A model generated the notes under the pieces. The model was given only the letters and a program-made list of their open reading frames with translations, had not been told where the DNA came from and ran no database searches. 64,000 bases of DNA. Source: Acholeplasmataceae bacterium. GTDB taxonomy: Bacteria; Bacillota_I; Bacilli_A; ML615J-28; CAG-698. Of the stretch, positions 37,958 through 60,100 are shown one piece after another (position 1 is the stretch's first letter; every line of letters starts with the position of its first letter). Location of the stretch: NCBI GenBank assembly GCA_012839485.1, contig DUNF01000058.1:1272-65271 (forward strand). Reading direction: 5' to 3'. Made by a program: the position numbers and the translations under genes.

Positions 37958-40219
37958 ATGAAACTAAAAGATTTAAGTTTAAAACAAAAAGTTGGACAAA
38001 TGCTTATGTTTAGTTTTCATGGAACTAGTTATAATGAACAAGTAGATTATCTTTTAAATGAGTTAAAGCTTGGAGGCTTGATTTTATTTAAAAGAAACAT
38101 TACTTCTTTAAAGCAAGTAAGCAAATTAAATAGCGAGATTTCTCAAGATAAAAAGATTAGACCATTTATTGCTTTAGACCAAGAAGGTGGACCAGTTCAA
38201 AGAATTGAAAAAGGAATAACACCACTTCTTTCTGCGATGGGTTTTGCAGCTAATGGAAAGGATCCATATGAGTTATATAAAGGGGCAGGTAGGGACTTAA
38301 AACATTTAGGTTTTAGTATTAACTTTGCTCCCGTAGCAGATGTTAATAATAATCCTTATAATCCTGTAATTAACTCAAGGAGTTATTCTGATAATCCAAA
38401 ACTTGTTTCAAGGTATGTTTTAAGAGCAAGTCAAGGATTTAAAGATGCTAAGCTAATTGCAACTGTTAAACATTTTCCAGGTCATGGTGATACGAATGTA
38501 GATAGTCATTTAGGTTTACCAATTGTCAATAAGTCTTTAGAAGAAATTGAAAAAGTAGAACTTTATCCTTTTAAAGAAGCTATTGAAAATGGGGCTAATG
38601 GAATAATGATGTCGCATATTGTTTATCAATGTTTAGATAAAGATAATCCTGCTAGCCTATCTTATAACATTATTACTAAACTTCTTAAAGAAAAGTTAGG
38701 ATTTAAAGGACTAGTTGTCACTGATTCATTAACAATGAAAGCTATTTGGGATAACTATAGTATTAAAGAGATTATCAAGAAAGGAGTCTTAGCGGGAAAT
38801 GATATTTTATGTTTCTGCGGTAAGGCTGATTTAAATGAACAAAAAGAAATCTATAATACTTTTGTTAGTTTAGTGGAAGAAGGAGAAATTCCTCTTTCAA
38901 GAGTAGATGAAGCAGTTAAGAAGATTTTAGAATATAAAGAAATTTATTTGGAAAAAGATTTAGATTTTGAAAACAATTTAAGTGTTATTAAAAAGGAAGA
39001 AAAATCTAAACTAGCAGAAGAGTTTGCTTTAGAATCAATTACTTTAGTAAAAGATAAGGGGCTAGTTCCAATAAAAAAACAAGAAAAGATTTTTGCGATC
39101 TTTCCGGAAATTAAACTATTTAGTTTAGTTGATAACAAAGAAAATGATTATTTTACTTTACAAGATTTCTTAGATTGTAATGAAGTTGTAATAAATAAAG
39201 AATTTACTAATTATAAGTTAATTAAGGATGAGATTAAAAAAGCAGATAAAGTAATCTTTTGTACTTATAATGTAACTAAGGGGGATTATCAAACTAAAGT
39301 TTGGGAAGTTCTAGATCCAAATAAAACAATTGTAGTTAGCATGAGATCACCTTATGATATCTTACATTTAGAAAATGTTGAGAGTTATATTTGCTTATAT
39401 GAAGCAACTTTACTTTCTTTGAAAAGTTTAGTAAAATTAATATATAGTGGTAAGTTTAAAGGAAGCTTGCCGATTAAATTAGAAGGAGGAAATATGAAAA
39501 TTATTAGAGTTAAAGACTATGAAGAAATGAGTAAAAAGGCCGCTGAAATAATAGCTGATGTAGTTAAGAAAAACCCTGCAGCTAATTTAGGTTTAGCTAC
39601 TGGTTCAAGTCCTTTAGGTACTTATGAAAATCTAATTAAAAAGTATAAAGCTAAAGAGATTTCTTTTAAAGATATAAAGAGTTTTAATTTAGATGAATAT
39701 TGCCAGTTAGATAAGAATCATGAGCAAAGCTATTATTCTTATATGAATGAAAACTTATTTAAACACATTGATATTAAAAAAGCAAATACTCATTTACCTT
39801 CATCTGAAGGAGATGACTTAGAAGCTAACTGTAAAAAGTATAATGATTTATTAAAGAAAAATCCTGTTGATTTACAGTTATTAGGAATTGGTGGTAATGG
39901 CCATATTGGTTTTAATGAACCTGGAACTGCCTTTACTCAAGAAACATTTGTAGTTAAGTTAGCTGAGAAAACAAGAGAAGATAATAAGAGATTTTTTGCA
40001 TCAATTGATGAGGTTCCAAAGTATGCAATTACGATGGGAATTAAGAATATTATGGATGCGAAAGCAATTTTGATGGTAATTAGTGGAAAAGGAAAGCAAG
40101 ATGCAGTTAATAAACTTTTATCTAAGAAAGTATCTGAAGATTTTCCAGCAAGCATTTTACATAAGCATCCAAATGTTACGGTAATTATTGATGATGCTGC
40201 ATATGGAGATAATAAATGA
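37958..40219 (+). CDS. nagZ-nagB: Fusion: GH3 beta-N-acetylglucosaminidase (NagZ-like) plus glucosamine-6-phosphate deaminase (NagB)
   Basis: ATG at 37958 follows AAGGAGG. GH3 motifs: ALDQEGGPVQR, KHFPGHGDTNVDSHL, VVTDSL. From the in-frame ATG at 39494 there is a complete NagB (MKIIRVKDYEEMSKKAAE, GLATGSSPLGTY, GIGGNGHIGFNEPG). No stop codon between the two parts. Confidence 0.85.
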   Translation: MKLKDLSLKQKVGQMLMFSFHGTSYNEQVDYLLNELKLGGLILFKRNITSLKQVSKLNSEISQDKKIRPFIALDQEGGPVQRIEKGITPLLSAMGFAANGKDPYELYKGAGRDLKHLGFSINFAPVADVNNNPYNPVINSRSYSDNPKLVSRYVLRASQGFKDAKLIATVKHFPGHGDTNVDSHLGLPIVNKSLEEIEKVELYPFKEAIENGANGIMMSHIVYQCLDKDNPASLSYNIITKLLKEKLGFKGLVVTDSLTMKAIWDNYSIKEIIKKGVLAGNDILCFCGKADLNEQKEIYNTFVSLVEEGEIPLSRVDEAVKKILEYKEIYLEKDLDFENNLSVIKKEEKSKLAEEFALESITLVKDKGLVPIKKQEKIFAIFPEIKLFSLVDNKENDYFTLQDFLDCNEVVINKEFTNYKLIKDEIKKADKVIFCTYNVTKGDYQTKVWEVLDPNKTIVVSMRSPYDILHLENVESYICLYEATLLSLKSLVKLIYSGKFKGSLPIKLEGGNMKIIRVKDYEEMSKKAAEIIADVVKKNPAANLGLATGSSPLGTYENLIKKYKAKEISFKDIKSFNLDEYCQLDKNHEQSYYSYMNENLFKHIDIKKANTHLPSSEGDDLEANCKKYNDLLKKNPVDLQLLGIGGNGHIGFNEPGTAFTQETFVVKLAEKTREDNKRFFASIDEVPKYAITMGIKNIMDAKAILMVISGKGKQDAVNKLLSKKVSEDFPASILHKHPNVTVIIDDAAYGDNK
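39483..39496 (+). promoter_or_regulatory. Internal Shine-Dalgarno plus ATG at the GH3/NagB junction
   Basis: AAGGAGG (39483-39489), 4 nt, ATG (39494), in frame inside the fusion ORF. Spacing is shorter than the 7-10 nt seen at other genes here. Confidence 0.5.
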
Positions 40220-41172
40220 TAGAGTATAAAAACTTTAAACAATTTAAAGATTACCATTTAATCCAAGAATTATGGAATGATGATTTACTTGGAATGTATC
40301 CAATTTCTGATTTTATCTTTAAGCAAAATGTTACAGAGAATAAATATGTTCTTAAAGAAAATTCTTTTGTAGCATTAGCTGGAGATGAAGTTGTTGGGTT
40401 TATTATTTCTAAAGAGTTTATGAATGATATGGTTAAAAGATATCATGATATTGGTTTTATTAGTTTATTTTATGTAAAGAGAAAATATCGTAAGCAAAAA
40501 ATTGCCACAACTCTTTTTGAAAAAGTAGAAGCTGGTTTTAAGAAATTGGGTAAAAAGACAATTTGGATTGGAAAAGATATCAATAATTTCTTTCCAGGAG
40601 TTCCAGTTGATTTCAATCATCTAACAACAGACTTTTTAGAAAAAATAGGTTATAACAATTTAGGGCCTACTCATGATATGGTATGTTACCATTACCAAAA
40701 AGATGTAATTGAACATTTTGAGAATATGGAAAAATATCAATATCGTTATTTTGAGAAAAAAGATTATAAAGCTACTAAAGCATTTTTTGAGAAGTGTTTT
40801 CCTGGAAGATGGGAATTTGAATTCCAAGATTATTATGAGACAGGAATATTTGGTAAAGATTATATAATTTGCTTAGATAAAGATCAAGTTGTTGGTTTTG
40901 TAAGATTAAGTGATACAAAAGTTCCAGTATTTCCTTACCATATTACTTGGTATCAAAAGTTCAATAATCTAGGTGCACTTGGGCCTTTAGGTGTTGATAG
41001 TGACCATAGAAGACAAAAAATTGGCAGTAATTTATTAAAAATTGCAATTAAAGACTTACATGATCGAGGATGTACAGAACTTTTAATTGATTGGACAGGA
41101 CTTTTAGACGTTTATAATCGTTTAGGATTTGAGGTTTGGAAGAGTTATACAACTTACGATAAAAAGATTTAA
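40216..41172 (+). CDS. Tandem-GNAT acetyltransferase (paralogous in layout to 19006-19983)
   Basis: Two GNAT cores (FYVKRKYRKQKIATTLFEKVE; GVDSDHRRQKIGSNLLKIAI...YNRLGF). Start overlaps the nagB stop by 4 nt. Confidence 0.65.
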   Translation: MIEYKNFKQFKDYHLIQELWNDDLLGMYPISDFIFKQNVTENKYVLKENSFVALAGDEVVGFIISKEFMNDMVKRYHDIGFISLFYVKRKYRKQKIATTLFEKVEAGFKKLGKKTIWIGKDINNFFPGVPVDFNHLTTDFLEKIGYNNLGPTHDMVCYHYQKDVIEHFENMEKYQYRYFEKKDYKATKAFFEKCFPGRWEFEFQDYYETGIFGKDYIICLDKDQVVGFVRLSDTKVPVFPYHITWYQKFNNLGALGPLGVDSDHRRQKIGSNLLKIAIKDLHDRGCTELLIDWTGLLDVYNRLGFEVWKSYTTYDKKI

Positions 41173-41198
41173 AACTAGATATCGTTTCCAAAAAACTC

Positions 41199-41227
41199 TT
41201 GATATTTCAGGTATTATTTAGTATAAT
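41199..41227 (+). promoter_or_regulatory. SigA promoter of the Big_2-SBP lipoprotein gene
   Basis: TTGATA, 17 nt, TATAAT. Confidence 0.65.
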
Positions 41228-41276
41228 AATAATGAGGTCGTAGGACTTAAAGCAAATCAAACAAGGAGGAAAAATC

Positions 41277-44200
41277 ATGAAAAAATGGTTATCATTGCTT
41301 TTAGTATTTGGTTTAAGCTTATTACTATTTGGATGTAGCCGTGATGACAAAGTTATCGAAGTTACATCAGTAGAACTTAAATCAAATGCCGAAGAATTAC
41401 AAGTAGGACAAACTTATCAAATTACTCCTACTGTAAAACCAGCCGATGCCACTGATAAAACAGTGACTTACGACAGTAATAATAAAGCAGTTGCTACTGT
41501 TAGTGCTAGTGGTTTAGTATCAGCAGTTGCAAAAGGAACCGCTGTTATTACCGTTAAAGCAGGTACAAAACAAGCAGAGCTTACTATTACTGTAGTACAG
41601 GAAGAAGAAGTACAATTAGTTATTACTGTTCCACAGGAAGCAGCAACAATTGTTGTTGGCGGAACTTACACAATTGGAGCACAAGTGAAAGATCAAACTG
41701 GAGCTCCAAAACCAGCAACATTAGCATACGCATCAAACAATAACGATGTTGCTACTGTAGACGATAGCGGAAAAGTTACTGGACATGCAGCAGGAACTGC
41801 AGTTATTACAATCACATCTGGTGAACTTTCTAAGACTGTTACAATTACAGTTACAGCAGAAGAACCAAGTGAGCGTGCAATCGCAGGTGTTCCTGAGGAA
41901 GATCCAGAAAACAATGTATACATCTTTATTGGAAGAACATTTACTGCTACTGTAGCAAACTTAAGAGAAGGTGAAACAGTTGCTTGGAGCACTCAAGATA
42001 CTGAAGTTATCTCATTAAGCGATGAAGGTGCTGTAGAAGCTCTTGAAGCAGGTATTGCAACTATTCATGCAATTGTATCTGACGCAGAAGGAAATCAAGT
42101 AGCTGATTTAAGTGCAACTTTTGAAGTTATGGATGAATCAGTTCTACCATTATTCGTATCTGAACCAGGATACACATTAAAGAGAGAAGAAATTGCAGTT
42201 GATTATCAAGCTAACTACAAAACTAATAAAGTAGACGAAATTACTAAAGATGTAATTTACAAAGTTGAAGATATTACAGATCCTGAAAATCCAGTTGAAC
42301 TTGGACAAAACTATGAAGCTAACGAGCAAGAAATTCCAGCAGAAGATATCGCTGAAGTATTGACATTCGTTATCGCAGCAGATGGAACAAGTAAAACTGG
42401 TGTTAATAGAGGAAGATTAAGAGTTGTAGCGTTAAAGCCAGGTTTATTAAGAATCACAGCTAAAGTTGGCGACGAAACATCAGAGCCATTTGAATTAAGA
42501 TTAATTGATAGACCAATGCCAACTGAATTAGTAATTAGCGCACCAAACAATGACCCACAAATTGAAACTAAAGGCGGAAGCTTAAAATTATCAGCTTCAA
42601 GTAAACCAGCGTTCTCATATAGCACTGTTACTTGGTCATCAAATAATCCTTTAGTAGATGTTCGTGCAGATGGTACACTTATCTGCAACGGAACAGATGA
42701 TGATATTGGAACAGTTGTAACTATTACAGCTACATCAACTGTAGTTGAAGGTTTAACAGCTACAATTGATATTACAATAAAAGAAAAATATGTAGAAGTA
42801 ATTGAAACACCAGAACCAACAAGCATTACTATTAACGGTTATCCAGATGTTTTCATTGGTGAAACATATCAATTTACAGCTGACGTTGGACCAGCAGGTG
42901 CAAATCAAGCTGTAGTTTGGTCATCACAAAATGATGCTTATGCTACTGTTGATGAAAATGGTTTAGTAACTGTTCATGCAGCTGGCGAAGGAAAATCATT
43001 CTATATCATTGCACGTGCACCAAGTGTTGAAAACCCTGGTACATATGCAGTTACACAAAGATATCAAATTAGAGCTGCTAAGCCACCAATTGATCCAGAT
43101 CCAATTAACTTAAATGGATATCAAATTACAATTATGAACGCAGGCCATGCATTATTTGATCAAGATCCATTCTTACCACAATATGCAGGTGCTGATAAGA
43201 CTGCTAAACAAGCAGCTTGGCGTGAAGTTGAAGAAGCTTATAACTGTACAATTAAAGTTGTTGCTTATCCAGAAGAAGCTCCATGGGGACCAGCGAGAGT
43301 TCAATGGATTAACAACAATGCAAATAATACAAAAGGTGGAGCAGATTTCTATATCGTAACTACTACATGGTTAAATCAATTCTCTGCAAGTCAAGCATTA
43401 TTCCCAGTACAAGACTTATATATTCGTTTTGGAAAGAATAGTATGGACCCTGCATCAAGAGAAGCAGCTACATATAAAGGAAACTTATATGCTATGAGTG
43501 CTTCTACATATGGAGCTAACTATATTGACCGTGGTTTATTCTTCAACCTTAACTTACTAGAAGAAGTTGGAATGGAGAACCCTGCTCAAATGTTCATGAG
43601 CGATCGTTGGACACATAGTGATTTTGAACAATGGGTATTAGATGCACAAGTTGCAATCGGCCAAAAAGGTGAAGGTTATTATGCTATTTGCGGTAGACCA
43701 TTCTTCTACTGGGCAGGTATGATTAACGCAGCTGGTATTAAGATGGTTGACTCTGCAAGTGCTTCACTTAACGTTGATGGACCTATCCAAAGAAGTGTAG
43801 TTAACGTACTTAAGAGAATCTATATGAACCACCAAGCTTGGGATCCAACTCCTGGATATGATGGTCAAACTGAAGCATTCAGAACAGAAAAAGCAATTAT
43901 GGATGGCGGAGAAATGTGGTTTGTAAAGACTGACAACCGTTGGCCAATTGATATGTGGTCACCTAATGACTCATCTGGCACAAGATATGGATATGTTCCA
44001 TTCCCTTATCCAGATAATATGACAAAAGAACAAACTAAGGTTATTACTAAGGGTGGATCAATCTACGCTATGGTTAACCATATGACTCATAAACACGTAG
44101 CTGCAGGCTTAAACGATGATGCAGTAGCATATGAAGGTATTTACCGTGCTCTAAACGATGTATTTAGATGGACAGAAAGAAAACAAAAAGAAGCTGGAGA

Positions 44201-44462
44201 ATTAGTTGGAGAAACTGAATTAGACGTTAGACGTCAAAATGCTAGTTTAAGACTAGATGATCCATTCTCAATTGAATGTGTTCTATTCTATGACAAACGT
44301 AGAGTAATGTATGACCCATATGAAGAAGTAATCGGAATTTGGGCTACTCCATCAGCTGCAAGACCAGCTGAAGAAGGTATCCGTCAAGGAGCAGACTACT
44401 CAGCAGTTGTAGCAGAATGTATGCCAGCATGGCAACAAAAGGTTATCGCACAATTCGGATAG
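41277..44462 (+). CDS. Lipoprotein with at least 5 Big_2 (bacterial Ig-like group 2) domains and a C-terminal solute-binding-protein-like domain
   Basis: Lipobox LLLFGC. Repeated Big_2 pattern (VGQTYQITPTVKPADATDKTVTYDSNNKAVATVSASGLVSAVAKGTAVITV and four more). The last ~460 aa look like a sugar SBP (ADFYIVTTTWLNQF, SDRWTHSDFEQWV). SD AAGGAGG. Confidence 0.65.
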   Translation: MKKWLSLLLVFGLSLLLFGCSRDDKVIEVTSVELKSNAEELQVGQTYQITPTVKPADATDKTVTYDSNNKAVATVSASGLVSAVAKGTAVITVKAGTKQAELTITVVQEEEVQLVITVPQEAATIVVGGTYTIGAQVKDQTGAPKPATLAYASNNNDVATVDDSGKVTGHAAGTAVITITSGELSKTVTITVTAEEPSERAIAGVPEEDPENNVYIFIGRTFTATVANLREGETVAWSTQDTEVISLSDEGAVEALEAGIATIHAIVSDAEGNQVADLSATFEVMDESVLPLFVSEPGYTLKREEIAVDYQANYKTNKVDEITKDVIYKVEDITDPENPVELGQNYEANEQEIPAEDIAEVLTFVIAADGTSKTGVNRGRLRVVALKPGLLRITAKVGDETSEPFELRLIDRPMPTELVISAPNNDPQIETKGGSLKLSASSKPAFSYSTVTWSSNNPLVDVRADGTLICNGTDDDIGTVVTITATSTVVEGLTATIDITIKEKYVEVIETPEPTSITINGYPDVFIGETYQFTADVGPAGANQAVVWSSQNDAYATVDENGLVTVHAAGEGKSFYIIARAPSVENPGTYAVTQRYQIRAAKPPIDPDPINLNGYQITIMNAGHALFDQDPFLPQYAGADKTAKQAAWREVEEAYNCTIKVVAYPEEAPWGPARVQWINNNANNTKGGADFYIVTTTWLNQFSASQALFPVQDLYIRFGKNSMDPASREAATYKGNLYAMSASTYGANYIDRGLFFNLNLLEEVGMENPAQMFMSDRWTHSDFEQWVLDAQVAIGQKGEGYYAICGRPFFYWAGMINAAGIKMVDSASASLNVDGPIQRSVVNVLKRIYMNHQAWDPTPGYDGQTEAFRTEKAIMDGGEMWFVKTDNRWPIDMWSPNDSSGTRYGYVPFPYPDNMTKEQTKVITKGGSIYAMVNHMTHKHVAAGLNDDAVAYEGIYRALNDVFRWTERKQKEAGELVGETELDVRRQNASLRLDDPFSIECVLFYDKRRVMYDPYEEVIGIWATPSAARPAEEGIRQGADYSAVVAECMPAWQQKVIAQFG

Positions 44463-44480
44463 AATTTAAAGATATAAACA

Positions 44481-44510
44481 AAACCACATGATTTTATCGT
44501 GTGGTTTTTT
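44481..44510 (+). terminator. Rho-independent terminator
   Basis: AAACCACATG-attttat-CGTGTGGTTT followed by TTTTT. Confidence 0.8.
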
Positions 44511-44522
44511 ATTTCTCTTTTA

Positions 44523-44551
44523 TTGTTATTTGACCTTAGATATGGTATAAT
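44523..44551 (+). promoter_or_regulatory. SigA promoter (extended -10) ahead of the DUF624-like gene and the MurNAc operon
   Basis: TTGTTA, 17 nt (incl. TGg), TATAAT (extended -10). Confidence 0.55.
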
Positions 44552-44574
44552 ATAAAGAGTTTAAGGAGTTAATT

Positions 44575-45375
44575 ATGGATGTAGAAAAGTATGTCAATAG
44601 TAAAGCTTTTATCTTTTTTGAGTGGACATATCGTTTAATAATAATGAATTTATTGAATCTTTCAATAATTATAACTATGAGTTTTGGTTTTTGGGTGCTA
44701 TTTATTGCCATTCAAAAAATGACTTATTTTTATCTAGCAATTCTACTAACGCTTTTGGGCTTAATTATTACTTCAATTGCTAGTTTTAAAACGATTAAAG
44801 ACTTAAGTGGGTACCGAAGGAGTGGTTTGTATAAAACCTATTTTTCCAATCTTTGGTTTAGTTTTAAAGATCTTTGGTTTATAGAACTGCTTATTGTAAT
44901 TATTTATGCCTTTCTATTAGGATCATCATTAACATATAGTTTGATTTTAAATCACGAAGATTTTACTTATGATTTTATAGGGATAGTTTATACCGTAGGT
45001 TACTGGCTTGATTGGATTTTATTATTTTTCTTAACTCAAGCTGTGATTTCGTTTTGGGCTGTCTATAGTCATTTTCAAATGACAAAGTGGAATTATATTA
45101 AAGCTAGTTTTTATATGTCTTTTAAGTTATTTTTACCAACATTGTTAGCGGGTATTTTCTTCTTTTTAACACCAGTTTTAATAATTGTTTTAGGTTTAAT
45201 TCTTAGTCCAATGTTATCATTGTTGCTTATTTCATTTTTTAGTTTATTTGGAATTACCTTGCCTCAGTATTTATACTTTAGAATGATAAAAGGCAAATAC
45301 GCATATCTTACAAAAAACCCTGATGATATTCAGGATTTCGATAAATATGAATTAGAAAAGGAGAATGAAATTTAA
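44575..45375 (+). CDS. Polytopic membrane protein, YesL/DUF624-like
   Basis: 266 aa with 6 hydrophobic spans. The N-terminal FFEWTYRLIIMNLLNL pattern and a location next to sugar-transport genes resemble DUF624 proteins. Tentative. Confidence 0.45.
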   Translation: MDVEKYVNSKAFIFFEWTYRLIIMNLLNLSIIITMSFGFWVLFIAIQKMTYFYLAILLTLLGLIITSIASFKTIKDLSGYRRSGLYKTYFSNLWFSFKDLWFIELLIVIIYAFLLGSSLTYSLILNHEDFTYDFIGIVYTVGYWLDWILLFFLTQAVISFWAVYSHFQMTKWNYIKASFYMSFKLFLPTLLAGIFFFLTPVLIIVLGLILSPMLSLLLISFFSLFGITLPQYLYFRMIKGKYAYLTKNPDDIQDFDKYELEKENEI

Positions 45376-45455
45376 ATTAGGAATTGATTGTATTGATGAA
45401 CACTTAGATTTGTTTAAATGAAAAGACTAATTTAGTTGCTTTATTTAGTCCTGAG
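45365..45455 (+). pseudogene. Decayed duplicate of the namZ (DUF1343) 5' end
   Basis: 45365-45415 matches 46174-46224 at 46/51 nt, and 45417-45455 matches 46300-46338 at 37/39 nt. The intervening 75 nt of the intact gene are missing. The remnant reads MKFKLGIDCIDEHLDLFK, then TGA. Its ATG sits behind AAGGAG in the 3' end of the upstream gene. Confidence 0.8.
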
Positions 45456-45594
45456 TATTTAGATAATGAAGGAAATGTAGTTAAACATTCGCTAAGAGAT
45501 AAGATAGTTAGTTATGAAGTAAAAGCTGCTATCAAGGACAATCAAAAACATATAAATATCAAACAAAAATCAAAAAGTTATTAGAGGTGGAAGT

Positions 45595-47316
45595 ATGAAA
45601 AAAGTATTGAAATTTGTTTTAGTTCTTTTCCTTTTTGTAGTCTTAGTAGGTTGTAAGAAGGAAGAAGCATTTAAGGCTGTAGAGAATTTAATTGACAACA
45701 TCGGTGAAGTTACTCTAGAAGACGAAGCATTAATTAATGAAATTGAAGAAAAATTTAATGCTTTAAGTGAAGAAGATCAAGAGAAAGTTGCTAACTTAGC
45801 TGTTTTAGTAGATGCACAAGTTACGCTTGATAGTTTAAAATTCTTAGCTGAATTAGACATTAATTATGATGATGCAACTTTAGCTGTATTAACTGCTTTA
45901 AAAGGCAAGATTAACAATTTAAGTAATGATGTAGCTAATAAAATTCAAAATGAAATTAATGCAGCATTAGATAAAATTAATAAACACATTAAAAATTTAG
46001 AATTCGAAGCTGCTGTGTTAGCTTTAAATGGCGAGGTTGATAAAGAAGCATTAGCTCAACTAGACCTTGTATATGAATCTATAACAGAAGAGTTTAAAGC
46101 AAAACTTAAGGCAGATATTAAACAAACATATTTTACATTATCGGCGCAAGCTAAAGAACAAGGAGAAGAAAGAATGAAATTAAAATTAGGAATCGATCGT
46201 ATTGATGAACATTTAGATTTATTTGAAGGAAAGAGAGTAGGTTTAATTACTAACCCTACTGGGATAAATTCGAAATATCAATCTACAATTGATGTTTTGA
46301 ATGAGAAAACTAATTTAGTTGCTTTATTTAGTCCTGAGCATGGGGTAAGAGGGAACTTACAAGCTGGGATTAATTTAGGAACTTATGTAGACGAAGAGAC
46401 AGGGATTACTGTTTATTCGTTATATGGAGATACAAGAAAACCATCAAAAGAAATGTTAGACGAAATAGATATTTTATGCATAGATATTCAAGATGTTGGG
46501 GCAAGATTTTATACTTATGTTTATACGATGGCTTATTCAATGATGGCCTGTAAAGAAGAAGGAAAGAAGTTTGTAGTGTTTGATCGCCCAAATCCAATTA
46601 ATGCTTCTGATTATGAAGGCAATATTTTAGATATCAATTATCGTTCTTTTATTGGTTACTACCCAACAATCCAACGTCATGGAATGACAATTGGGGAACT
46701 TGCTTATTTATTTAATGAAGAGTTTGAGATTGGCTGTGATTTAGAAGTTATTAAGATGGCTAATTATGACCGCACTAAGTATTTAGATGAATTAGATATT
46801 TTATATGTTTATCCATCTCCTAACTTACCGACAGTTAATAGTTGTATTTTATATCCAGGTACATGTATTTTTGAAGGAACTAATCTGAGTGAAGGAAGAG
46901 GTACTGCAACTCCATTTGAGTTAATTGGGGCACCTTATATAAACTCAAAAGAATTAGCTGATAAATTAAATAGTATGAATATTGAAGGAGTTTACTTTAG
47001 ACCACAATACTTTACACCGATTTATTCGAAAAATAAAGATTTATTATGTGGTGGTGTGTATATTCACGTTTTAGATCGTAAGAAATTGAAGTCAGTATCG
47101 TTAGGGTTTATCTTACTTGATACAATTAGAAACTTATATCCAAATGACTTTAAAGTTAACCCACCTTGGAGCGAAGGCGGAAGAACGATGTTAGACTTAA
47201 ATACAGGGACAGATAAGATATCTAAATACTTACTTACTTTAGAAGAACAACTTGCTTGGATTAAAGAAGATACTAAAAAGTTTGGTGAGATTAGAAGTAA
47301 ATATTTAATTTATTAA
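45595..47316 (+). CDS. namZ: Lipoprotein form of exo-beta-N-acetylmuramidase NamZ (DUF1343/GH171) with a 193-aa helical N-terminal module
   Basis: Lipobox VLVGC, then helical repeats. From Met194 (46174, preceded by a vestigial AAGGAG) it reads MKLKLGIDRIDEHLDLFEGKRVGLITNPTGI...LFSPEHGVRG...DIQDVGARFYTY, the DUF1343 pattern. Confidence 0.75.
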   Translation: MKKVLKFVLVLFLFVVLVGCKKEEAFKAVENLIDNIGEVTLEDEALINEIEEKFNALSEEDQEKVANLAVLVDAQVTLDSLKFLAELDINYDDATLAVLTALKGKINNLSNDVANKIQNEINAALDKINKHIKNLEFEAAVLALNGEVDKEALAQLDLVYESITEEFKAKLKADIKQTYFTLSAQAKEQGEERMKLKLGIDRIDEHLDLFEGKRVGLITNPTGINSKYQSTIDVLNEKTNLVALFSPEHGVRGNLQAGINLGTYVDEETGITVYSLYGDTRKPSKEMLDEIDILCIDIQDVGARFYTYVYTMAYSMMACKEEGKKFVVFDRPNPINASDYEGNILDINYRSFIGYYPTIQRHGMTIGELAYLFNEEFEIGCDLEVIKMANYDRTKYLDELDILYVYPSPNLPTVNSCILYPGTCIFEGTNLSEGRGTATPFELIGAPYINSKELADKLNSMNIEGVYFRPQYFTPIYSKNKDLLCGGVYIHVLDRKKLKSVSLGFILLDTIRNLYPNDFKVNPPWSEGGRTMLDLNTGTDKISKYLLTLEEQLAWIKEDTKKFGEIRSKYLIY

Positions 47317-47327
47317 GGAGAAAATTA

Positions 47328-49949
47328 ATGAAAAAATTACATGAATTAACTTTAGAAGAAAAAATTGGCCAGTTGTTTATAGTTGGTTTTTATGGCGAGG
47401 AGTTTAATAACGATTTACTTAATTTAATTAAAGATTATAAAATCGGAAATGTAATTTTATTTTCTCGTAATATTTCTGCGGTAAAACAGTTATATAAATT
47501 AAATAAAGATATCCATACTAATATGGAAAAACATTTAGGAATTATGCCTTTCATTACAATTGACCAAGAAGGAGGAATGGTTACAAGAATCTTTAATGAT
47601 GCAACTTTTTTTCCTGGGGCAATGACAATTGGAGCAACAAAGCTTGATAATGCTTATTATGTGGGGCAAAAGATGGGAGATGAGTTAAGAGCTTTAGGAA
47701 TTAACTTTAACTTAGCCCCAACATTAGATGTGAATAATAATCCTCATAATCCGGTAATTGGTGTTAGAAGTTATTCAAGCAGTGAAAAACAAGTTGCAAA
47801 CTATGGCATAGCTTATATTAAAGGGTTACAAGAAAAAGGAATTATTGCAACTGCAAAACATTTTCCTGGTCATGGAGATACAAATATTGATAGTCATTTG
47901 GGACTGCCAATAATTGAACATTCAAAAGACCGTTTAAATAGAATTGAACTTTATCCATTTAAAAAAGCTATAGCTTCAGGTTTAGATGCGATTATGAGTG
48001 CGCATATTATTTTTAAAGCATATGATAGTGAAAAACCAGCTACTTTATCTAAAGCAGTATTAACTGATCTTTTAAAAAAAGAGTTGGGATTTGAAGGTTT
48101 GATTGTAAGTGACTGTATGGAAATGAAAGCTATTGATGATACAGTTACTGCACCAGTTGGTGTTTTAGAAGGTTTACTTGCAGGGCTGGATATGGTTTTT
48201 GTAAGTCAAACACCTGCCAAACAAATGAAAGCAGTAGAACTTGTGAAGGAAGCAGTGTTAAATGGAAAGTTTCCTTTAGATTTATTAGATGAAAAAGTAG
48301 AAAAGATATTAAAATATAAAGCTAAATCATACGAACTATTAAAGAATGAATTTTTTAGTAAAACATATAATGAGCAAGAAGAAATATTGCTTAATCCAGA
48401 AACTAAAGCTAAAGCTTTAGAGATTGTAGCTGAATCGTTAACTTTAGTAAAAGGAGATAATGTAAATCCAAGTTTAAAAACTTTAGTTTTAGCTCCAGAT
48501 CCATTTGCCTCTACAATCATTGAAGATGAGTTTTCTAAAAATGATCGTTCAATTTACGATATGGTAAGATTAGAAAATAATCCTAACTTAGTTCCTTATC
48601 GAATTAAGATTAAACCTTCAAAAGAAGAAATAGATAAATATTTAGAATTAGCAAAAGATTATAAACAAATAGTTTTATGTACATATAATGCTACAATTAA
48701 CCGAGGCCAAATTGAACTTGTTAGAAAACTAAATAATTTGGATAAAAAGTTATATGTAATTAGTATGAGAAATCCTTTTGATATTTTAAACTTTAAGGAA
48801 GTTTCTAATTACTTAGCATTATATGAATACACACCTAATTCAATTAAAGTTTTAATTAGTTATTTAAATGGCGAAATTAAACCAAAAGGGAAATTACCTG
48901 TTTCTTTAAAGGAAAAAACCGAGTTTGGTGCAAGTGTTTATTTAGGTTTAGATGATTATAAATTGGAAGATAATTTAAAATATTTAGAAAAGTTAAAGAA
49001 AAATGGCTTTAGTTTTGTTTTTGTATCGATGCATATGCCTGAAGCAGGAAGTCATGTTTATGATGAGTTTTTAGCGATTAAGGATAAAGCTAAAAGTTTA
49101 GGTTTAGAGTTAATAGTTGATGTTTCTAAACCAACTTTTGATAAACACAAGATGTTTGGTGTTGATCGTATTCGTTTAGACTGGGGTTTTAGTAAAGAAG
49201 ATATCGTTGATTTAGTTTTAGATGGTTATGATATTGAACTTAATGCTTCGACTTTAACGGAAGAGTTAGTTGATTATTTAAAAGAAAGAATAGATTTATC
49301 TTTAGTAACGGTTAGTCATAATTTTTATCCAAAGAAATATACTGGGTTAAAATATGAAGATGTGAAGGAAAGAAACAACTTTTTAAACAATTTAGGTTTT
49401 AAAGTTATGGGCTATATTGCATCGCTAGAAAACAAAAGACCTCCTTTATATCTAGGATTACCTACAGTAGAAACAATGAGAAAGATGCCAGTTTTTCTTC
49501 AAAAACAAGAAATGGAACTTTTAGGTTTTTCGAAAATTTGTTTTGGAGATGCGATTATTAGCAATAAAGAATTAAAAGAGTTAACAGAAGAAAAGGAATA
49601 TTTTACTGTACCTTTAGTTTTAAAAAAGGGAATTTCAGAAAAAGAAAAAGAAATTATTAATAAAGTTCATCGTGTTAGAATTGATCAATCAGAGTATATG
49701 ATTCGTAGTACTAAATATCGCGGAGAAAAAGGAATTGAACCAAATAATACAGAGAAAAGATCAAAGTATGATATTACGATTGATAATGATTTGATGAAGA
49801 GATATTCTGGTGAATTAAATATTATGCTAACTGATTTAGAAGCCGATAAAGCAGTTAACGTAGTTGGTAGAGCAATTTTGAGTGATTTTAGTTTAGACTA
49901 TTTAAAGATGCAAATACCATTTGTTTTTGAAGTTATTGGAGAAGAATAA
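47328..49949 (+). CDS. nagZ-mupG: Fusion: GH3 beta-N-acetylglucosaminidase (NagZ-like) plus DUF871/MupG-type 6-phospho-N-acetylmuramidase (GH170)
   Basis: GH3 motifs: TIDQEGGMVTR, KHFPGHGDTNIDSHL, IVSDCM, ending at KGKLPVSL. After a 6-aa linker comes GASVYLGLDDYKLEDNLKYLEKLKKNGFSFVFVSMHMPE, a DUF871-type N-terminus, and ~340 further aa. No signal peptide. Confidence 0.75.
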   Translation: MKKLHELTLEEKIGQLFIVGFYGEEFNNDLLNLIKDYKIGNVILFSRNISAVKQLYKLNKDIHTNMEKHLGIMPFITIDQEGGMVTRIFNDATFFPGAMTIGATKLDNAYYVGQKMGDELRALGINFNLAPTLDVNNNPHNPVIGVRSYSSSEKQVANYGIAYIKGLQEKGIIATAKHFPGHGDTNIDSHLGLPIIEHSKDRLNRIELYPFKKAIASGLDAIMSAHIIFKAYDSEKPATLSKAVLTDLLKKELGFEGLIVSDCMEMKAIDDTVTAPVGVLEGLLAGLDMVFVSQTPAKQMKAVELVKEAVLNGKFPLDLLDEKVEKILKYKAKSYELLKNEFFSKTYNEQEEILLNPETKAKALEIVAESLTLVKGDNVNPSLKTLVLAPDPFASTIIEDEFSKNDRSIYDMVRLENNPNLVPYRIKIKPSKEEIDKYLELAKDYKQIVLCTYNATINRGQIELVRKLNNLDKKLYVISMRNPFDILNFKEVSNYLALYEYTPNSIKVLISYLNGEIKPKGKLPVSLKEKTEFGASVYLGLDDYKLEDNLKYLEKLKKNGFSFVFVSMHMPEAGSHVYDEFLAIKDKAKSLGLELIVDVSKPTFDKHKMFGVDRIRLDWGFSKEDIVDLVLDGYDIELNASTLTEELVDYLKERIDLSLVTVSHNFYPKKYTGLKYEDVKERNNFLNNLGFKVMGYIASLENKRPPLYLGLPTVETMRKMPVFLQKQEMELLGFSKICFGDAIISNKELKELTEEKEYFTVPLVLKKGISEKEKEIINKVHRVRIDQSEYMIRSTKYRGEKGIEPNNTEKRSKYDITIDNDLMKRYSGELNIMLTDLEADKAVNVVGRAILSDFSLDYLKMQIPFVFEVIGEE

Positions 49950-57151: not shown

Positions 57152-60100
57152 ATGAAAATGAGAAGATTTTTCGGTGCACTTTTGATGCTTGTATTTGCCT
57201 TAACTGTGGTAGGCTGTGTAAGCAACAAGAAGTACAACGATGTTGCTGAACAGCTAAACAACGCTCAAACTCAATTAGACGCAGCAAATGCACAATTGAC
57301 AGTATTAGAAGAGCAAAAAGCTGCTCTTGAGTTGCAACAACAAAATCTAAACGCAGAGAAGGCAGCATTAAATGCTAGAATCGCTCAACTTGAAGAATTC
57401 GAAGGTTTATCTGCCGAACTAGAAGAAGAACTAGCTCAATTAAACGAAGAGAAAGAGGCTCTTGATGCCAGAATAGCGGAAACAGAAGCTGATTTAGCAG
57501 CTCTTCAAGAGTTAGTTGCCGCACTAAGCAATAGACCTGTTGCGCCGACTTCATTAGAACTATTTTTAATCGGTTCAACGCTTGTAGGAACATCTACAAA
57601 TGCAGCTGAGCCTGATATTGACTATGTAGTTACACCAGCTGGCGCATATACTGGTTTATATTTTGAGGTTGAAAATCCTGAGATTGCAAGTGTTGATAGC
57701 TTAGGTCGTGTTACTGGTTTAAAACCTGGTAAAACTAAGATCAATGCTTGGTCTACACTAGATCCAAGTGTTAAGGATTCAGTTGATTTTGAAGTTATCG
57801 AAGCTGGAGCAGATTTAGATATCGTAATCGCTGCAGTTAACGAAATTTATGCTCAACTAAATAGATCATATGTTGCTGAAGATTTAGCATTAATGCATGC
57901 TTCAAACCCTTCAGTAAAGATCTCATACTTAAAAGGATCAGAAGTTATTGCTGAGTACGTAGATGGCGAATTAACACGTGGTACAGGTTACTACGCATAC
58001 GAAGCACCTGCAGTAGATAAACTTGAAAAAGTTACTATTAAAGGTGAATATGGCGCAAACAACGTACAACACAATATGGAACTTACTCTATTCGTTGTTG
58101 CTGATTTAGCAAACAATGCTTTCAATAGAGTACAAATGGCAAGAGATATCGTTGAATCTTACCTACTTCCTTATACATCAGAAGTAGAAAAAGTTTCAGC
58201 TGATTTAGCTTTAGAGGCTGAAATTGCTGGCGTAGAAATTGTATACACAAGCAGTGCTAAACAAGTTATTAGCAATGAAGGTGCATATGTACGTCCACTT
58301 GATGACACTAAAGTTAACTTCCAAGTTATGTATAAGTATCAAATCCCTGGTGGTGAATTATACACTGAATCAGCAGCATATGACGTATATGCTAATGGAT
58401 ATACTGCAGATGAAAAAATGGACTACATCGTTAATGAAGGGTCACTTGCTTTCTTAAATGGATATGCAAGCAACGTTAACATTAACTTACCAGCTGCAGA
58501 TGACAAATTTGATGCTAAATTAACTTATGTTTCAGATAAACCAGAAGTTTTTGATAACGCTGGTAAATATGCTAATCAAGAATTAGCAGAAGCTACTGTA
58601 GTTACTTACACAGTTAGTTTCGAATACCTAGGAGAAGTTTTAGGAACTAGAGAAGTTGCAGTTACTGCAAACTTACCTTCAGTTGCTTCAAAAGCAGCTA
58701 ATGCTTTTGCTAACAACAACGAAGTTCCTGCTCATTTCCCTTATGGTGTTAAAGGTAGAGCAGGCGGAAATGCTCTTCCAGGACTTGTAGCTACACAAGC
58801 AGTTGGCGAAGATACAGCTAACGTTGCTTGGGAAGCACTAGAACCTGAATTATGGGCAGACGGCTTTGTATTAAATGCACAATATTTAAGATACCGTGAA
58901 ACTGCTTTAAAAGCTACATTCACAAATGCAGCTGATGAAACAGATAAAGCTGAATTAGAATTAGTTATAAATATCGGTGCTGGAAAAACTAAAGATGATA
59001 TTATTGTTGCAGGACGTTTCTCACAACAAACATCTACAGTTTATAAAGAAAAATGTGATACATTAGCATTATTCTCATACTTTGATCCAGTTGTTGGTGT
59101 TTTAAATATGGCATTCCCAACATATTACTCAGGTTATATGTTCTCAATTCAAGGCGAATTCAGACAAGCTCCAAACAATCCTGATATTGAAATTTTCTAC
59201 CAAGGAGAAGATGCTTCTAGAAGCAACTTATATATCAGACATGACTCAGTAATTTATGTTACTGGTAAAAAAGACAATGGCGAAGGTATCTTTGATAATA
59301 GTACTTTAATTCAAGGTACTGGTGGTAACTGGCCTGTATTATATGTAAACAATTATACAGAAACAGTAAAAGTTCCACTTGCTGTTCACGTAACAGGCAA
59401 TGGTTCAGATGGAAATCCAATTGTATCAACTGGTTTCTCTCGTGAATTTGCTTTAACAGTTGACGGTTACAGAACTGTTTTCATTGTTAACTTAGAAACA
59501 GGTGAAGTAGTATCTGGTAATGGTAAGAGCGGAATTCAATTCGCTTACCCAGCAGGAACAAAATATCTTGAACTTCCTGCAAACCATGCTATTTACTGTC
59601 CAAAAACACAATCAAATAATGCTATTTACAATGGCGTATTCTGTGTACAAGGAACTCATCTAGAAGTTAATCATCATGATTTACATCCAAAGAACAGTTA
59701 TTTCATTGATACAGCTAATGCACAATTAGAAAACGCTGAAGCTTCAATTGCTAAGTTAGAAGCTGGTGAAGCATTAGGCGAAGAAGATGCTAACCCAGTT
59801 ACAGCTTTAGCAACAGCTAATGCAAGAGCAAACAATGCTAGATTATCAGATGCTGAAAAAGCTGGATTTAATGCCGCAAAATACGCTGAACTAGCTGGTC
59901 GTTATGCTTTATTATTCAATGAAGAATTACAAGCATTAAAAGATAGCAAAGGTGAAATTGGCTTCTATATGGAAGACTATGTAGTAGCATTACAAGCTGC
60001 TTATGATAAGTATGATGCTTTACCTGAAGCTGCTCAAGATGCTGTTCCATTAAAAGCTTGGTTACTTGCTGAAAAAGCACTTTACTTAGATACAAACTGG

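Follow-up and report, generated by a model that had tools for sequence, protein, structure and literature searches.

Organization of the namZ locus

The 64-kb window analyzed here (64,000 nt, the whole stretch of contig DUNF01000058.1 under study) belongs to genome G000, a 939-kb metagenome-assembled genome (MAG) of 124 contigs and 88.7% completeness, and it contains a namZ gene whose N-terminal coding region was copied from another locus (Table 1). The open reading frame (ORF) at 45595-47316 encodes a 573-aa product made up of a lipoprotein signal peptide, a ~170-aa helical module and a complete NamZ, and ahead of it, at the end of a membrane-protein gene, there is a short dead copy of the namZ 5′ end, to which we refer as the stub. 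The original prediction, made from the letters of this stretch alone, proposed that an ancestral leaderless namZ was partially duplicated and gained a lipoprotein module, with subsequent decay of the upstream copy, and this interpretation is largely supported by the comparisons described below.

The comparisons draw on the sister genome G001 (Bacilli bacterium AMR_MDS_2243, congeneric; loci L025 = G001:C3 and L026 = G001:C2), the congeneric G002 (Acholeplasma sp. AS08sgBPME_237; loci L024 = G002:C59 and L027 = G002:C21), a near strain, X20, represented by a sequencing run that is 95-99% identical to the window, C80, a 2.3-kb contig of the G000 assembly itself (L002), and L028, a contig from Joint Genome Institute (JGI) metagenomes. 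The L028 flanks are 87-89% identical to G000 and G001, and by this measure L028 is a fourth lineage of the genus. For NamZ itself 41 related genomes were searched, and 17 loci from other genera were fetched for the upstream neighbour.

Metagenomes of at least 12 studies, from biogas and anaerobic-digester sources, contain the window sequence, and the exact 573-aa product, with identical geometry, is found in at least 67 assembly blocks. One 2560-nt Logan contig covers 44900-46900 with no differences, and both junctions described below are also covered by contigs of other studies. Since the sequence is the same to the base in many independent assemblies of DNA and RNA (Logan contigs, assembly blocks and metatranscriptome contigs), we reject an assembly artefact or chimera as the source of the structure. 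A cluster entry that places the 573-aa and 380-aa proteins on one 1.3-Mb contig was not reproduced (none above 0.2 Mb is listed) and was not used.

Table 1. Features of the namZ locus, with window coordinates.
Feature	Position	Strand	Evidence
Terminator of the preceding Big_2 gene	44480-44508		
Promoter-like site TTGTTA-17-TGnTATAAT, ahead of the membrane-protein gene	44523..44551	+	sequence scan
266-aa polytopic membrane protein, ancestral upstream partner of namZ	44575..45375	+	ORF; homologues beside namZ elsewhere
Old namZ Shine-Dalgarno AAGGAG, after 6-nt deletion	45358..45363	+	comparison with G001
Stub block 1 = namZ nt 1-51 (MKFKLGIDCIDEHLDLF); alleles G001-like (TTT, CAC, AAA)	45365..45415	+	46/51
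Scar of 74-nt deletion (namZ nt ~52-126), short direct repeats TTTAAA/GAA	45416..45417	+	absent from X20
Stub block 2 = namZ nt 127-165, ending at the conserved PEHG glutamate codon	45417..45455	+	37/39
Approximate G002-like tract in G001-like genome, read as a probable imported fused allele	45440..48300	+	sliding identity, dS, stub alleles
Left junction, 7-nt microhomology TCCTGAG common to namZ (AGTCCTGAG) and donor amidase (GATCCTGAG)	45449..45455	+	L028 vs window vs G001
Dead 3′ end of Amidase_2 gene	45456..45594	+	homology to C80, L026, L027, L028 amidase genes
Lipoprotein signal peptide MKKVLKFVLVLFLFVVLVGC, lipobox LVGC, Cys20	45595..45654	+	translation; L028 leader identity
All-helical N-terminal module, aa 21-193, from ~835-aa lipoprotein amidase	45655..46173	+	homology, AF2 model
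Right junction, purine-rich tract including internal Shine-Dalgarno AAGGAG (46160-46165), 8 nt before Met194	46160..46173	+	donor homology ends 46163-46169
NamZ core, aa 194-573, NamZ_N + NamZ_C	46174..47316	+	Pfam, PDB 4k05

The predicted lipoprotein form of NamZ

Pfam domains cover residues 215-573 of the long ORF, with NamZ_N (PF07075, 1.6e-82, profile positions 1-202 of 203) followed by NamZ_C (PF20732, 8.9e-48, positions 1-152 of 152), and there is nothing in residues 1-193. The profile matches place the core in the NamZ / DUF1343 exo-β-N-acetylmuramidase family. It also aligns with PDB 4k05 (2.4e-79, residues 2-379) with conservation of the motif LFSPEHGVRG, and the PEHG glutamate may correspond to Glu92 of the B. 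subtilis sequence. Glu92 is named in the paper describing the B. subtilis NamZ (PMC8054146).

The leader has the expected features of a lipoprotein, reading MKKVLKFVLVLFLFVVLVGC followed by KKEE, with three lysines, a 12-residue hydrophobic core and the lipobox LVGC, and the genome encodes both Lgt (PF01790, contig C115, 6.6e-38) and the signal peptidase II LspA (PF01252, contig C17, 8.8e-39), each above cut-off. Lipidation, surface display and extracellular activity of the enzyme would be predicted for such a product, amounting to a putative relocation of NamZ from the cytoplasm to the cell surface. The module is 87% identical in protein sequence to its counterparts in C80 and G001:C2, and 92.7% identical to that of L028. 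It has no Pfam match above any cut-off (the best, HSBP1 at 0.0013, is a coiled-coil artefact) and none in NCBIfam; an AlphaFold2 (AF2) model is all helix (pLDDT 68, pTM 0.49), and a Foldseek search of this model against PDB returned nothing at E <= 0.001.

The NCBI annotation (P0127; on the 67,234-nt contig holding the window) reports a 380-aa DUF1343 protein starting at Met194 and ignores the 193-codon extension, and we flag this conflict between the RefSeq-style 380-aa product and the selected 573-aa ORF. As originally noted, the live Met194 (ATG at 46174) lies 8 nt beyond an AAGGAG Shine-Dalgarno (SD) sequence at 46160-46165, and with both intact a cytoplasmic product may be made instead of the lipoprotein or as well as it.

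A displaced 5′ end of namZ

The stub DNA from 45365 (ATGAAATTTAAATTAGGAATTGATTGTATTGATGAACACTTAGATTTGTTTAAATGA), which translates as MKFKLGIDCIDEHLDLFK followed by a stop, matches the internal Met194 region of the long ORF in two blocks. The first (45365-45415) is identical to 46174-46224 at 46 of 51 positions and the second (45417-45455) to 46300-46338 at 37 of 39, and in a blastn comparison with the whole window these are the only matches above noise (E values of 2.8e-14 and 1.7e-12). The local score of 89 compares with 19.9 +/- 2.8 (maximum 34) in 2000 shuffles, and the self-comparison called for in the original prediction thus bears out its claim of a dead namZ start ending in a stop at the close of the upstream gene. 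The intervening deletion, given there as 75 nt, is 74 nt both by the block offsets (809 versus 883 nt) and by alignment with the unfused G001 locus, on which the G000 contig skips 74 nt with 6 nt fitting both sides; the loss is frame-shifting.

The AAGGAG of the stub is now 1 nt from the dead ATG because of a 6-nt deletion relative to G001, which reads AAGGAG-AATGAAA-ATG. We note that G001 (L025, 5601-5590, corresponding to window positions 45358-45367) has two in-frame ATGs (MKMKFKL), of which only the second has proper SD spacing (7 nt), and that the same 6 nt (AATGAA) are missing at the stub start in both G000 and X20.

Source of the inserted segment

A search of the G000 assembly with 45340-46340 identified a second copy of 45444-46169 on C80, with 86% identity. 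C80 contains the 3′ part of an amidase ORF whose stop codon overlaps (ATGA) the start of a lipoprotein ORF, and the first ~190 residues of the latter correspond to the helical module. The complete donor locus, present in G001 and G002, has three genes, coding for an 810-835-aa helical-repeat lipoprotein amidase, a 292-aa leaderless Amidase_2 protein, and an 831-835-aa lipoprotein consisting of a leader, the helical module, a PEDP-type linker, an atrophied Ig-like domain and Amidase_2 (L026 4819-7326, L027 3686-6181, and L028 from 1962, in addition to C80). Window positions 45456-46173 represent a copy of part of this locus, including the last ~139 nt of the 292-aa N-acetylmuramoyl-L-alanine amidase gene, the donor ribosome-binding site (GAGGTGGA, carried in at 45584-45591) and the first ~575 nt of the ~835-aa lipoprotein amidase gene (45595-46169). 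The dead amidase tail has a 1-nt deletion near 45527 and a cluster of substitutions at 45537-45544; the 1-nt deletion in the G002 tail is a different one.

A scan of the JGI metagenomes with the left junction recovered not another stub but the donor-type locus L028. Over the insert G000 is 92.8% identical to L028 versus 86.6% to C80, and on this comparison L028 is the closest donor allele known. The match is uneven, and the insert is a mosaic in which 45545-45665 is identical to the L028 lipoprotein-amidase leader region, with ~10% difference beyond it. Acquisition of a lipoprotein and helical module, as first proposed, is thus upheld, although the segment is not the ~580 bp envisaged but 717 bp, starting with the dead amidase 3′ end and the ribosome-binding site. 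A suggested origin in the giant lipoprotein gene at 57152 fails, as C80 and, weakly, C24 (a neighbouring lipoprotein amidase) are the only matches to the module in a tblastn search of the whole genome.

There are several further observations on the donor loci. C80 1-1850 is 99.8% identical to L026 3975-5825 in G001 (1850 nt, 1.85 kb) and ~93% identical beyond, in genomes that otherwise differ by 4-8%; this suggests that DNA moves between these species, and the stretch would reflect a recent recombination event between them or, alternatively, a short contig that is chimeric or was cross-binned. C80 ends in ~35 nt that resemble a fold-back artefact of assembly, by which the lipoprotein is falsely cut short at 484 aa. 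In G002 the donor module (L027, G002:C21, 3686-4290) has 56-59% protein identity to the other modules (dN 0.31, omega 0.39), and the donor protein outside the module is ~85% identical; either very fast evolution or replacement of this surface module would account for the departure.

Junctions of the insertion

The left crossover lies within the exact 7-mer TCCTGAG, which coincides with the Pro and Glu codons of the conserved PEHG motif. With a slash marking the end of the common segment, namZ reads ...TTATTTAGTCCTGAG/CATGG, the donor ...AGTTTAGATCCTGAG/TATTTAG and the product ...TTATTTAGTCCTGAG/TATTTAG; the L028 amidase natively reads GATCCTGAG/TATTTAGATAATGAAGG, in longer form ...TTAGATCCTGAG/TATTTAGATAATGAAGG... 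The original left junction was in frame, running namZ codons 1-55 into the last ~47 codons of the amidase. At the right junction the donor side reads ...AAAGAACAAGAAGAAGATCC in L028 and ...AAAGAACAAGGCGGAGATCC in C80, the recipient immediately 5′ of the ATG reads GAAAAGGAGAATGAAA(ATG) in G001 and AAGGAAGAAGAA(C/T)G in the G002 stub, and the product reads AAAGAACAAGGAGAAGAAAGAATG. The AAGGAG at this junction may be the old SD sequence of namZ or partly donor sequence.

When aligned to the unfused G001 locus, the G000 contig goes back 166 nt with 717 nt between, in addition to skipping the 74 nt noted above, which indicates that 166 nt of the target were duplicated, that 717 nt were inserted and that 74 nt were subsequently deleted. 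A fusion created by duplicative insertion is consistent both with the identifiable donor, from which a non-functional flank was carried along, and with the homology at the junctions, exact at TCCTGAG on the left and in the form of a purine tract on the right.

States of the locus in related genomes

All of the NamZ matches outside the genus begin at query residues 184-196, and in 29 of 41 the stop-to-stop frame is no more than 400 aa, too short to accommodate a leader. In at least nine of the 17 other-genus loci, namZ adjoins or overlaps a gene for a homologue of the 266-aa membrane protein. In G001, a 268-aa membrane gene overlaps a leaderless 380-aa namZ, an arrangement that is repeated in 82 assembly blocks. 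The unfused state is thus present in close relatives and in outgroups alike, and the expectation of a leaderless namZ coupled to, and directly following, the upstream membrane gene was confirmed by its presence in these relatives. None of them has two full-length namZ paralogues at this site.

The fused state takes more than one form. X20 has a full-length 166-nt stub that ends exactly at nt 165 and is followed by the amidase tail, with no 74-nt deletion. The evidence comes from a 48.6-kb contig that includes the membrane gene and reaches namZ nt ~134, one of 411 nt that spans namZ nt ~102-165 and continues into TATTTAGATAATGAAGG, and one of 525 nt that connects the module with the live namZ; contig depths of 49, 42, 40 and 50 fit a single path. 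G002 has the fused gene with a right junction identical to that of G000, and its stub has ACG in place of ATG, an internal 4-nt loss, and a join from namZ nt ~58 directly into the amidase tail at the 8-mer GAAGGAAA. This 8-mer occurs in both namZ and the amidase tail, and the G002 stub junction is what would be expected if a G000/X20-like ancestor had lost the DNA between its two copies of the 8-mer. Four states of the locus are therefore seen (one without the fusion, one with the fusion and an intact stub, and two in which the stub decayed independently), and the decay of the upstream copy that had been proposed is evident in its different course in each lineage, full in X20 and differently deleted in G000 and G002.

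Mosaic ancestry of the region

The upstream flank (40216-44980) of G000 is 95-98% identical to G001 and 79-88% to G002, whereas from 46174 to ~47700 G000 is 85-93% identical to G001 and 92-97% to G002; the flank pattern is restored past ~48.4 kb. The right end of the G002-like tract is uncertain, falling between 47.8 and 48.8 kb, inside the NagZ-MupG gene. Synonymous divergence (dS) for namZ is 0.59 to G001 and 0.34 to G002, and for the flanking genes it is 0.08-0.21 to G001 (GNAT, Big_2 and membrane genes) and 0.46-0.94 to G002 (Big_2 and membrane genes). The stub differs from G001 namZ at 4 of 93 sites and from its own live copy at 7 of 90, and its discriminating sites up to nt ~135 are G001-like (TTT, CAC, AAA, GAAAAG), with sites 141 and 162 being live-like. 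The G002 stub is live-type throughout (TTA, CAT, GAA).

Because the stub is of the G001 type and the live namZ of the G002 type, they probably represent a resident allele and an imported one, respectively, and not in situ duplicates. The original proposal of a partial duplication in place is therefore sustained as to the duplication and not as to where it happened: the primary duplication probably took place in another lineage of the genus, and a fused allele of ~2.5-3 kb probably entered a G001-like genome by recombination, this being the presumed direction of import. We abandoned clock dating of the event, since the module has a dS of 0.31 and the dead tail a difference of 5.5% against L028; the inconsistent distances of module, tail and namZ point to further recombination or conversion.

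Selection on the fused reading frame

Between the module and its L028 donor counterpart dS is 0.305 and dN (non-synonymous divergence) is 0.034, giving an omega (dN/dS) of 0.11. Polarising single changes with the three other module sequences assigns 12 synonymous and 4 non-synonymous (and conservative) changes to the G000 fused lineage (P = 3e-6 under neutrality for so many synonymous changes). There are no insertions or deletions in the 579 nt of the leader and module, and three (deletions of 74, 6 and 1 nt) in the adjoining ~305 nt of junk. The substitution pattern shows the module to have evolved under purifying selection in the G000 lineage.

G002 presents a different picture, with 10 synonymous and 23 non-synonymous changes in the module. 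We also observe that its leader (L024 1779-1720, minus strand; L047-L053) has lost one base in a T-run, GTTCTTTTCC becoming GTTTTTTCC, as a result of which gene callers report a 493-aa protein starting from TTG. A sequencing error was considered and rejected, the frameshift being identical in seven Logan assemblies (one study series), in the DUOW01 MAG and in JGI contigs. The fused frame is thus maintained by selection in G000 and not in G002, where the fusion is being lost and where NamZ must start internally.

Transcription and the upstream gene

The only outstanding promoter-like site is that ahead of the membrane-protein gene, and no terminator-like sites were found between 44575 and 46300. 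Two metatranscriptome contigs, of 1588 and 1332 nt, include the membrane gene, the stub, the amidase tail and the module with no differences, and transcription therefore crosses all four. The 266-aa membrane protein has no Pfam or NCBIfam match, and the label 'DUF624-like' given to it in the original prediction is unverified.

Probable origin of the fusion and alternative explanations

The anatomy of the locus, the source of the insert, its junctions and the unfused sister state can all be read from the alignments, and a replicative or illegitimate mechanism would account for them. We consider it highly probable that a duplicative insertion in one lineage fused a piece of the amidase locus to namZ, and that the product was later imported into G000. 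The ancestor would have had a leaderless NamZ, presumably cytoplasmic, with a start codon overlapping the end of the small membrane-protein gene. In one G002-related lineage of this Acholeplasma-like genus, the 717-bp piece of the amidase locus would have been copied into the 5′ end of namZ with duplication of ~166 nt of the target, the crossovers occurring in TCCTGAG on the left and in the purine run upstream of the namZ start on the right, such that the donor frame ran into the namZ frame and generated a 573-aa protein with the LVGC lipobox, the helical module and NamZ. The 166 nt displaced from the start of namZ would have become junk together with the amidase tail, decaying through the 74-nt and 6-nt deletions and a tail frameshift in G000, persisting as a full stub in X20, and suffering a larger deletion and loss of the ATG in G002. 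Finally, the fused allele, within a segment of ~2.5-3 kb, would have moved from the G002-related lineage into a G001-like background by recombination, with crossovers in or at the stub homology on the left and in nagZ-mupG on the right. Microhomology-mediated illegitimate recombination, template switching and homology-facilitated illegitimate recombination are known processes in bacteria, and the locus resembles their products in its 7-8-nt microhomology junctions, its target duplication with a templated insert, and perhaps in the anchoring of one side by homology, although the likeness is one of scars only.

A strictly in situ history, in which duplication and insertion occurred in the direct ancestor of G000 with vertical inheritance since, would explain the target duplication flanking the insert and the right junction common to G002; G001 would either never have been fused or have reverted through the 166-nt direct repeats, which would permit precise reversion. 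We regard it as unlikely, as the flanks group G000 with G001 and leave G002 outside, yet namZ is nearer to G002, and the stub is nearer to the G001 namZ than to the live copy adjacent to it. Independent captures would be a different history, with a stubless source of structure [amidase][module::namZ] being taken up separately by G000 and G002 through homology-facilitated illegitimate recombination, namZ homology anchoring the right side, the left sides joining at TCCTGAG in G000 and GAAGGAAA in G002, and the stub being simply the resident 5′ end. The perfect microhomologies (7 and 8 nt) at both left junctions, the resident (G001) type of the G000 stub and the mosaic identity that supports import all agree with it. 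The G002 stub, however, is of the live type and not a diverged resident, even though the flanks are 15-20% diverged, the G002 junction is explained equally well by later deletion between the two copies of GAAGGAAA, and no genome with [full amidase][module::namZ] was found; we think such captures quite unlikely.

It could also be argued that the upstream 579 nt are dead, with the real gene being the 380-aa leaderless NamZ from Met194 and the long ORF remaining open through the recency of the insertion. The internal SD sequence 8 nt before the ATG, the 380-aa call made by PGAP on this contig, and the frameshifted leader and non-synonymous excess in the G002 module all point that way. They have to be set against the 12:4 ratio of synonymous to non-synonymous changes, the omega of ~0.1 and the absence of any insertion or deletion in these 579 nt of G000, next to 305 nt of true junk that sustained three deletions, and against a signal peptide and lipobox that are intact and identical to those of the functional donor, and this explanation seems to us very unlikely. 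Bare similarity is all that would recommend the stub as the remnant of a second full-length namZ paralogue or as an assembly chimera. Decay of a tandem paralogue is excluded by the X20 stub, which stops exactly at nt 165 and enters the amidase tail, and by the single namZ of the relatives, none of which has two namZ genes here, and with independent DNA and RNA assemblies in agreement neither notion is credible.

A number of observations nonetheless weigh against insertion followed by import, or against its presumed consequences. The fused modules of G000 and G002 do not group together relative to L028 (dS of 0.53 versus 0.31 and 0.33), and the insert has the mosaic relationship to L028 described above, with no differences over one segment and ~10% thereafter; these suggest further recombination or gene conversion in the history of the insert, which the sequences do not resolve. 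The right crossover would lie somewhere in the purine tract common to both parents (GAAGAAGA-like), and its exact point cannot be placed. Part of the branch carrying the 12 synonymous and 4 non-synonymous changes may predate the fusion. The fusion is known here from DNA and transcripts, NCBI calls only the 380-aa NamZ on the contig itself, and the intact internal AAGGAG and ATG may direct synthesis of a cytoplasmic product. The broken leader and neutral module of G002 indicate that the fusion is dispensable in at least one lineage. Finally, an external NamZ alone could not degrade glycan strands processively, and the window has no evident exported NagZ, with the 873-aa NagZ-MupG protein being leaderless. 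This protein, encoded at 47328-49949 directly after namZ, is a fusion of GH3 (NagZ-type), MupG_N and MupG_C.

Relationship to other NamZ proteins and biological context

Neither FtsW/RodA (PF01098) nor the penicillin-binding protein transpeptidase (PF00905) was found in the 88.7%-complete G000 MAG, and its gene content, with many peptidoglycan-degrading genes, fits a wall-less Acholeplasma-like organism. Stable-isotope work in slurry has shown that dead E. coli biomass was assimilated mainly by Acholeplasma (PMC4628116). The NamZ of G000 would plausibly sit on the membrane surface beside amidases with the same anchor module, and trim N-acetylmuramic acid (MurNAc) from foreign wall debris before its uptake.

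The family founder, B. subtilis NamZ (YbbC), is a secreted exo-β-N-acetylmuramidase that acts with secreted AmiE and NagZ (PMC8054146). The G000 protein resembles it in belonging to the two-domain family (NamZ_N and NamZ_C), in the PEHG motif and in its location in a MurNAc catabolic operon, and a similar placement is proposed for it, the B. subtilis enzyme acting extracellularly with an exo-amidase. The means of export differ, with B. subtilis NamZ having an ordinary cleavable Sec signal peptide and the G000 protein a lipoprotein leader and 170-aa amidase-derived helical module, and G000, unlike B. subtilis, is without a wall of its own. Other lipoprotein forms of NamZ are present in MAGs of Bacilli and Acholeplasmataceae (P0004, 445 aa; P0005, 582 aa; P0006, 503 aa; P0011, 504 aa; P0024, 501 aa), in which a lipobox leader (e.g. 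LVGC, FSGC, FAGC) precedes a core beginning at the same (V/I)KLGID motif. Their N-terminal additions, however, are one or two Big_2 domains or acidic Pro/Asp linkers and are unrelated to the helical module, and by this comparison they are independent events; externalising of NamZ thus appears to be recurrent. No other module::NamZ fusions were found outside the protein's own 90% cluster. The fused protein also resembles the donor lipoprotein amidase, with which it shares the leader and helical module (87-93% aa identity), and the two loci have the amidase tail and ribosome-binding site in common further upstream. Beyond the module the donor continues with the PEDP-type linker, atrophied Ig-like domain and Amidase_2, whereas the fusion passes directly into NamZ with no linker.

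A more speculative idea, and one we think doubtful, is that the helical module serves as a transferable cassette for docking or display, by which peptidoglycan-degrading enzymes (NamZ as well as two amidases) are brought together in one assembly on the surface of a wall-less scavenger, with the internal SD sequence and ATG also supplying cytoplasmic NamZ. If true, cassette fusions would be a general route for externalising catabolic enzymes in these bacteria.

The locus is an unusually complete new example of a known evolutionary process in a known enzyme family, and we do not regard it as a system of a new type. In most cases a gene fusion or the gain of an export signal is inferred from its end state, whereas all of the elements of one event are legible here, including the unfused sister, the donor with its useless flank, both junctions, and the stub in three stages of decay, as well as selection on the module in one lineage, its loss in another, and signs of allele transfer between species. 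It provides a testable case in which a cytoplasmic enzyme may have been brought to the surface in one step with its old start site retained as a fallback, and it is relevant to the question of how Acholeplasma-like bacteria, wall-less organisms that abound in anaerobic digesters, may feed on the cell walls of others.

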